5,926 bases of DNA from a virus (lineage: Duplodnaviria > Heunggongvirae > Uroviricota > Caudoviricetes): the IMG/VR virus record IMGVR_UViG_2547132417_000011; one strand, written 5' to 3'. The translations under genes and the position numbers were made by a program. Positions 235-567 of the stretch are shown here, in pieces. The notes beneath the pieces are model-generated. The model was not told the origin of the DNA. It saw nothing but the letters and a program-made list of their open reading frames with translations, and did not search any database. Within the stretch, counting starts at the first letter, position 1. Each line of letters begins with the position of its first letter.

Positions 235-567
235 CTAATTTGTCAGATTCTGACCAGACGGTTCAGGCTGTACGCTTACGTAAAACCAGTAACCAGGCAC
301 GGTAATACGGCGGTTAGCGGTAATATCAGGAACTTCAATAACACTGGCGTTACGGGGTTCAATGCCTGTCACATTCTTACCGACCCACACCACGCGCCCG
401 TCTCCGGTGTAAGCTATTTTTATTGTGTCGCTGGCGAAATTCTTCTGTTCTTCATACCAGTTTTTGCCGTCTTCCGAAAAAAGCCAGGTGATACCATATT
501 GTTTTGTCAGCTGATATTGTTCCGCGGTTTTCGGGTTACCCGCAGTAATATTTTTTAAATGCAACAT
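235..567 (-). CDS. Phage tail fibre assembly protein (P2 G / Tfa-like), apparently truncated and C-terminally fused to IS-derived codons
   Basis: ATG at 567 lies 2 nt after the tail fibre stop. The N-terminus MLHLKNITAGNPKTAEQYQLTKQYGITWLFSEDGKNWYEE...VPDITANRR resembles Tfa N-terminal domains as I recall them. Codons from 279 downward (VSVQPEPSGQNLTN, stop at 235-237) are encoded by the IS terminus. Product is 110 aa against a typical Tfa of about 170-200 aa. Confidence 0.7.
   Translation of the reverse strand: MLHLKNITAGNPKTAEQYQLTKQYGITWLFSEDGKNWYEEQKNFASDTIKIAYTGDGRVVWVGKNVTGIEPRNASVIEVPDITANRRITVPGYWFYVSVQPEPSGQNLTN
255..279. repeat. Terminal inverted repeat (IRL) of IS66-family element
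   Basis: Reverse complement of 255-279 aligns with 5646-5670: gtaagcgt, cagc and gaaccgt blocks are identical. The repeat is imperfect. Confidence 0.65.

Follow-up and report, generated by a model that had tools for sequence, protein, structure and literature searches.

Mu gpU is the only tail fiber assembly (Tfa) protein with a solved structure (5YVQ_B), and the primary paper on Mu Tfa is that of North et al. from 2019, cited here through PMC9608196. In the Mu model, Tfa is modular, with a nonconserved N-terminal domain that binds the distal part of the fiber and a conserved C-terminal helical domain that serves trimerization and assembly (PMC9608196). The family can be gauged from the intact 181-amino-acid Tfa protein of Escherichia coli strain 214-4 (NZ_CP025840.1), which matches 187 phage records, 158 of them over at least 80% of its length; these records include phiP27, Mu, D108, P1, and P2-type phages. 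The intact protein matches the Pfam profile Caudo_TAP from position 2 to position 131 of 131 (E value of 6.5e-24, with 85 bits for the intact or reconstructed allele) and Mu gpU with an E value of 1e-37, without gaps over residues 1 to 102 and with indels beyond. The boundary between the two Tfa domains used here is based on the alignment to 5YVQ_B, on Pfam and PHROG coverage, and on the literature; an AlphaFold2 prediction for the intact protein made without an alignment had a mean pLDDT of 40 and was not used. The other known system of relevance is the IS66-family insertion sequence of the ISEc22/ISEc8 type, of which a full 2,441-bp ISEc22 copy in strain 503025 served as a reference. This copy has the complete tnpA-tnpB-tnpC set and is bounded by its own 8-bp duplication, GGTTGATT.

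We describe here a locus at which, with a probability of roughly 0.92, the insertion of an IS66-family element disrupts tfa, the homologue of Mu U and P2 G, in a Rac-type prophage of E. coli 2854350. The window, i.e., the whole stretch of DNA that was analyzed (5,926 bp), is the entire contig APZL01000105.1 of assembly GCA_000356845.2, as identified by an exact match of its 110-amino-acid open reading frame (ORF). Its relevant features are the following.

1 to 279, minus strand: left (tnpA-side) end of an IS66-family element of the ISEc22/ISEc8 type
253 to 279, minus strand: terminal inverted repeat (IRL) of this element, starting with 5'-GTAAGCGTACAGCC
235 to 567, minus strand: chimeric 110-amino-acid ORF, END41537.1, annotated as "putative gpUa protein"
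235 to 279, minus strand: 14 IS-encoded codons (VSVQPEPSGQNLTN) and a TAG stop codon, read directly from IS sequence
280 to 567, minus strand: native tfa codons 1 to 96, encoding the fiber-binding N-terminal domain
280 to 287, no strand assigned: one of two copies of the target site duplication GTAAAACC, covering tfa codons 95 and 96 together with the final two bases of codon 94
570 to 1955, minus strand: 461-amino-acid tail fiber gene directly upstream of tfa
3829 to 5004, minus strand: gene for a 391-amino-acid protein with HSDR_N and HSDR_N_2, N-terminal domains of type I restriction R subunits
5646 to 5926, minus strand: second IS66-family end, with the IRR and the tnpC C terminus, co-oriented with the first

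The tfa gene starts at position 567, two bases past the stop codon of the fiber gene, whose product matches phrog_6859 (6.6e-128) and phrog_454 (1.5e-102), both labeled "tail fiber protein," as well as the Pfam domain gp37_trimer. This 461-amino-acid fiber is presumably the substrate that is assembled by the Tfa protein of the window. The 110-amino-acid ORF has only partial matches to Tfa families. Its match to Caudo_TAP is confined to profile positions 2 to 44 of 131 and scores 20 bits against a cutoff of 22.1, and since it falls below the gathering score over so short a stretch, the ORF is a gene fragment and not a complete family member. It further covers positions 2 to 96 of the 178 in phrog_136, while phrog_24494, a 93-position family labeled "tail fiber chaperone," matches solely the N-terminal domain of Tfa (1 to 93 of 93). 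The native residues 1 to 96 align without gaps to residues 1 to 96 of Mu gpU (5YVQ_B) and are about 63 to 66% identical to the Tfa proteins of Mu and P2-type phages. The Tfa homology of the ORF ends at residue 93 to 97, and the C terminus, ...PGYWFYVSVQPEPSGQNLTN, contains 14 last residues that are IS derived. An initial annotation of this DNA had described a Tfa-like ORF of 110 amino acids running from 567 down to 235, with an IS that begins at 279 with a GTAAGCG terminus and gives the protein a chimeric tail after a cut at about 96 residues. Each of these points was confirmed, with exactly 96 native codons being followed by 14 IS codons and a stop.

Positions 1 to 279 are identical in all 279 bases to IS66-type copies, with matches of at least 99% in 3,418 complete E. 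coli records, and are identical in 278 of 279 bases (99.6%) to the end of the full ISEc22 copy in strain 503025, with the same last base. The IS66-type terminal GTAAGCG is read on the minus strand from 279 to 273, such that the plus strand has its reverse complement CGCTTAC at 273 to 279 and continues from 280 into host sequence, GTAAAACC. The same terminal motif is found on the plus strand at 5646 to 5652, and the two imperfect ends, 253 to 279 and 5646 to 5672, agree in 21 of their first 27 bases. A search with the whole window in 5,426 complete E. coli genomes gave good matches that all started exactly at window base 280. Together with the identity of positions 1 to 279, this shows that the IS terminus at 279 is real and precisely placed, far beyond what chance would give.

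The IS genes assembled in the window are the N terminus of tnpA and the C terminus of tnpC (DDE_Tnp_IS66_C, E value of 6e-18), and the interior lies in collapsed repeats. For tnpA, the first 62 codons run from 187 to 2 on the minus strand, with the rest of the IS lying beyond the contig end, and the partial 62-amino-acid protein matches HTH_Tnp_1, which corresponds to the N terminus of the accessory protein TnpA. The IS runs codirectionally with the late operon. As the stop codon of the chimeric tfa gene (235 to 237) is located 47 nucleotides upstream of the tnpA start (187), late transcription could continue into the transposase genes. At both IS-host junctions, simple scans gave neither a promoter-like site nor a convincing terminator, a result that is silent on polarity and read-out transcription.

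The initial annotation had proposed that the ORF be aligned with full-length homologues and that the empty-site allele be sought in related strains. Twenty-five related complete genomes span most of the window, and the empty site was found in E. coli 214-4, which is nearly identical to window positions 280 to 5645 (a reported identity of 100.0% that includes at least one mismatch, in tfa) and has no IS. In this strain, GTAAAACC is present as a single copy (L001, 4001 to 4008), and tfa is a gene of 546 nucleotides that encodes 181 amino acids and reads ...PGYWFY/RNDEFVFDYKLKAEDERD... (WFY/RNDEFVFDYK) at the position at which IS sequence takes over in the window. The alignment thus places the breakpoint after residue 96 of the 181-amino-acid protein. 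Because the 214-4 ORF continues past this point, the window has exactly 96 native codons, followed by 14 codons and a stop that belong to the IS. A single-base difference from the 214-4 gene gives the window tfa sequence N instead of D at residue 65.

For the other side of the element, we constructed the junction that a simple insertion would leave. As this junction has no start codon from the end of tnpC up to the remainder of tfa, a gene caller was expected to give a 59-amino-acid ORF beginning at Met123, and an exact look-up of this predicted remnant led to END42030.1, a "caudovirales tail fiber assembly family protein" from E. coli 2854350. The 3' half of tfa, and with it the C-terminal domain that is missing from the window, is located on the 88.9-kb contig APZL01000098.1 (L009) of the same assembly, which starts within the tnpC C terminus of the IS. 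The IS ends there with ...GCACGCTTAC / ...CTTGCTGCACGCTTAC at position 244 and is followed by GGTTTTAC at 245 to 252, the complement of GTAAAACC at window positions 280 to 287, and then by CGAAATGATGAATTT..., which is tfa from codon 97 on. This 3' part comprises codons 97 to 181 and has no start codon before Met123. Joining window positions 567 to 280 with positions 253 to 510 of this contig gives an ORF of 546 nucleotides that is one base different from the 214-4 tfa gene, and in the protein collection, 101 contigs encode exactly the reconstructed 181-amino-acid Tfa product. Beyond the tfa 3' half, the contig continues with a 608-amino-acid tail fiber gene (phage_tail_N), uspF, ompN, and ydbK, as in 214-4, and JGI sample 3300015155 (L010) shows the same far-side junction.

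The far half and its matching 8-bp duplication indicate a simple transposition, with nothing deleted on the tfa side. Since the short-read contigs of all sources break in the repeat, it is from the matching duplication that we infer a single intact IS between both halves of tfa. The expectation of the initial annotation that the remaining 3' fragment would be found beyond the IS, next to a direct repeat of GTAAAACC, was borne out in the same assembly, and its central claim, the truncation of the Tfa-like ORF by an IS66-family insertion, is upheld by the identity over 279 of 279 bases, the exact terminus, the empty site, and the recovery of the far half. What it had named as evidence to the contrary was not seen, as the last 14 residues of the 110-amino-acid product are derived from the IS and the terminus at 279 holds. 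On the far side (L009, 205 to 252), tnpC and the tfa remnant are in one reading frame, with the tnpC stop plus 15 sense codons between them.

Based on these data, an IS66-family element of the ISEc22/ISEc8 type of about 2.44 kb transposed into tfa of a Rac-type prophage that is located between ttcA and uspF, duplicating the 8-bp target GGTTTTAC (the last two bases of codon 94 and codons 95 and 96). The gene was thereby split into a 5' part with 96 native codons, 14 foreign residues, and a stop and a 3' part with codons 97 to 181 on the other contig. The insertion point lies where the two Tfa domains meet, and the truncated product is predicted to retain the variable N-terminal fiber-binding domain and to lose the conserved C-terminal helical assembly domain. 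The initial annotation was correct in that the C-terminal domain is lost, but the role that it gave to this domain, chaperoning of the fiber, needs correction: the C-terminal domain serves trimerization and assembly, whereas fiber binding is a function of the N-terminal domain that is kept (PMC9608196). Loss of the C-terminal domain most likely blocks maturation of the adjacent 461-amino-acid fiber, which would then probably be left unassembled, and the 2.4-kb IS would also part the second fiber gene from the late operon. It is reasonable to conclude that the prophage is probably defective for fiber assembly and, with a second IS copy 5.4 kb upstream in the baseplate region, it is most likely decaying and would not give infectious particles.

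A product consisting of only the N-terminal domain may still be partly active, or the defect may be complemented by a paralogous Tfa protein from another prophage. Mu Tfa stays on the mature fiber via its N-terminal domain, and phrog_24494 matches this domain only; for these reasons, the chimera may still bind the fiber. A reading in which the 110-amino-acid chimera does so as a partial or dominant negative chaperone and in which, separately, the two IS copies mobilize or delete the 5.4-kb cassette is given a small chance.

The second IS end, which begins with GTAAGCGTGCAGC, is identical in 281 of 281 bases to copies annotated as "ISEc22 family transposase." Similarity to the empty site stops at 5645, and the element sits between ...TCCTTGCC and TTATTCAAGG..., just downstream of a terminator-like hairpin and 14 nucleotides upstream of the GTG codon (5631) of a conserved 45-amino-acid ORF (phrog_6632), whose AAGGAG ribosome binding site is kept. 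The putative duplication at this site is TCCTTGCC, and for a simple insertion the far side is predicted to read ...CGCTTAC followed by TCCTTGCC and TTATTCAAGG (also written TTATTCAAGGCC). Searches for this far side via the neighboring baseplate protein returned other genomes only, and those via the 62-amino-acid partial TnpA protein returned, from this assembly, only the contig of the window itself; the predicted junction-spanning ORFs were absent from the protein collection. The second IS is likely a simple insertion as well and is context for, not part of, the tfa lesion. The two copies bracket 5,366 bp of tail genes, which recombination could delete. In assembly GCA_009868605.1 of another E. 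coli strain (L019, 3255 to 3319), a contig diverges within the same intergenic hairpin into TGTACTGACCCCAAAAAGTTGGACAG..., which resembles an IS3-family end and would be a different IS about 45 nucleotides from the site at window position 5645.

The bracketing of positions 280 to 5645 by IS ends of the same type in direct orientation would also be in line with a composite-transposon-like unit, in which two IS copies and the 5.4-kb segment with the fiber, baseplate J, and HSDR_N endonuclease-like genes moved, or can move, as a block. We regard this as very improbable. The segment is collinear with IS-free prophages, with continuity past the IS shown on the tfa side only, and comparison with the complete E. 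coli genomes found no copy of it in another context. Moreover, the left IS has its own 8-bp duplication at its two ends and hence inserted alone and not as the edge of a composite; a composite unit would have one duplication around the whole IS-cargo-IS block and none around the individual IS, which is not the arrangement found here.

Similarly little credence can be given to an IS-mediated deletion or rearrangement, by recombination or one-ended transposition, that removed the 3' half of tfa and the genes that follow. The unique segment between two co-oriented IS ends would fit such an event, as would two metagenome scans that did not find the far-side junction. However, the 3' half of tfa with the matching 8-bp duplication adjoins the other IS end in the same assembly and is followed by the gene order of the empty site, and for the tfa side, a deletion is therefore refuted by contig APZL01000098.1 and the JGI sample. 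The metagenome scans for the far-side junction or for tfa 3' sequence returned nothing or only one intact allele (L008), and they carry no weight, because the collection evidently does not contain the relevant samples.

An ENA assembly (L006) and a JGI sample (L007) each have a contig of identical sequence with slightly different trimming. Like the window, these contigs terminate within repeats, and both contain the tfa-IS junction. The two tfa-IS junctions were assembled separately by the NCBI, ENA (k141), and JGI pipelines and in TPA reassemblies, the latter of which carry the corresponding pair of partial proteins, P0114 (95 amino acids, with N65, on 5,361-nucleotide contigs) and P0103 (86 amino acids, on contigs of up to 88,774 nucleotides). 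Least probable of all is that the tfa-IS junction is a chimeric short-read join at a repeat and that the cell has an undamaged tfa gene: the window is a complete short contig bounded by repeats and one parallel contig ends in an Illumina adapter, but the junction lies at the exact last IS base, its reciprocal has the exact 8-bp duplication, which an artifact would not create, and the same two junctions come from independent assemblies. The adapter, untrimmed (ACACTCTTTCCCTACACGACGCTCTTCCGATCT) and joined to IS sequence, terminates the ENA metagenome contig k141_11031 (L006, 5625 to 5666).

The disruption of tfa by a single IS is the reading that we follow below. The split gene is present in about ten public assemblies, some of which may be reassemblies of the same isolates, and the insertion appears to be inherited within a lineage. 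Junction searches in the 5,426 complete E. coli genomes found neither the IS-host junction at tfa nor that at 5646. Many draft E. coli and Shigella assemblies break contigs within tfa at residues 92 to 97 (proteins P0031 to P0036, P0103, and P0114), which points to the C-terminal half of tfa being a near-identical multicopy repeat among resident prophages and marks the boundary between the N- and C-terminal domains.

In 214-4, the prophage between uspF and ttcA contains intR, xisR, recE, a RecT-family gene, kilR, and lysis, terminase, head, and tail genes. The ttcA-uspF site together with the first five of these genes identifies it as Rac type. The P2-like context assumed in the initial annotation therefore does not hold, as the prophage is of the Rac type at the ttcA-uspF site and has Rac-SA53 as its closest sequenced phage, and yet the N-terminal domain of its Tfa protein is about 65% identical to P2-type proteins. 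Likewise, the slot after tfa, which had been equated with that of the Z/fun moron of P2, is occupied by the 608-amino-acid second tail fiber gene (phage_tail_N), and this gene has not been displaced, as had been proposed, but is still present and merely separated from tfa by the IS.

Between the gene for a 115-amino-acid tail module protein of unknown function and baseplate J lies the HSDR_N gene, the product of which matches phrog_4225, labeled "endonuclease," with an E value of 1e-148; PADLOC gave no hit for this protein. The same slot holds other genes in Rac-SA53 and is thus a variable moron slot, which here possibly holds a defense or nuclease gene. Past the second fiber gene, a DUF4376 gene is an N-terminally truncated pseudogene already in the IS-free strain 214-4 (L001, 1780 to 1890), with which contig APZL01000098.1 can be aligned across this region (about 2360 to 2965), and strain GmM062 has a full copy. 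For this reason, the prophage lineage may have been partly impaired before the IS arrived. An unexpected host is given for PP818812.1, "Actinobacillus phage vB_Apl-pPE4," which has 96.5% DNA identity to the E. coli Rac-type tail module (hits H110 and H122).

For annotation, these data mean that END41537.1 and END42030.1 are the two halves of one IS-disrupted pseudogene and that the Rac-type prophage of this E. coli lineage, whose tail module contains two or more IS66-type insertions, is not to be counted as intact. The case illustrates the erosion of prophages by IS elements and the way in which such events are concealed when short-read assemblies are interrupted at IS copies. The locus also provides a natural Tfa allele with only the N-terminal domain, which could be used for testing the two-domain chaperone model. 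Beyond correct annotation, the significance is small: this is a textbook case in which a known element, present as an exact copy, interrupts a prophage gene, and it is an ordinary step of prophage decay.

With regard to known systems, the closest sequenced phage is Escherichia phage Rac-SA53 (KU052037.1), which has 94.6% identity over 69% of the segment. Its integration site and early genes are like those of the 214-4 prophage, and its gene order, rac58, rac59, a variable slot, baseplate J, rac64, tail1, tail2 (Tfa, 180 amino acids), and tail3, is the one found here, with tail1 as the fiber and tail3 as the second fiber matching the fiber-tfa-second fiber order. Rac-SA53 differs in that its tfa gene is intact, it has no IS, its second fiber is longer, and its variable slot contains an antirepressor and two hypothetical genes, in contrast to the HSDR_N protein encoded here. 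The insertion sequence has nothing distinctive and is a further copy in a new location: cataloged copies match its two visible ends with 100% identity, and the GTAAGCG termini, 8-bp duplication, tnpA N terminus, and tnpC C terminus are those of ISEc22/ISEc8, two names between which the 279-base left end does not distinguish, being 100% identical to a truncated ISEc8-labeled copy and 99.6% identical to the full ISEc22. Finally, compared with Mu gpU and P2 gpG (PF02413), the intact allele is homologous over its full length and, as in those phages, its gene directly follows the fiber gene, whereas the copy in the window ends at residue 96, followed by 14 IS-encoded residues, and lacks the conserved C-terminal domain.
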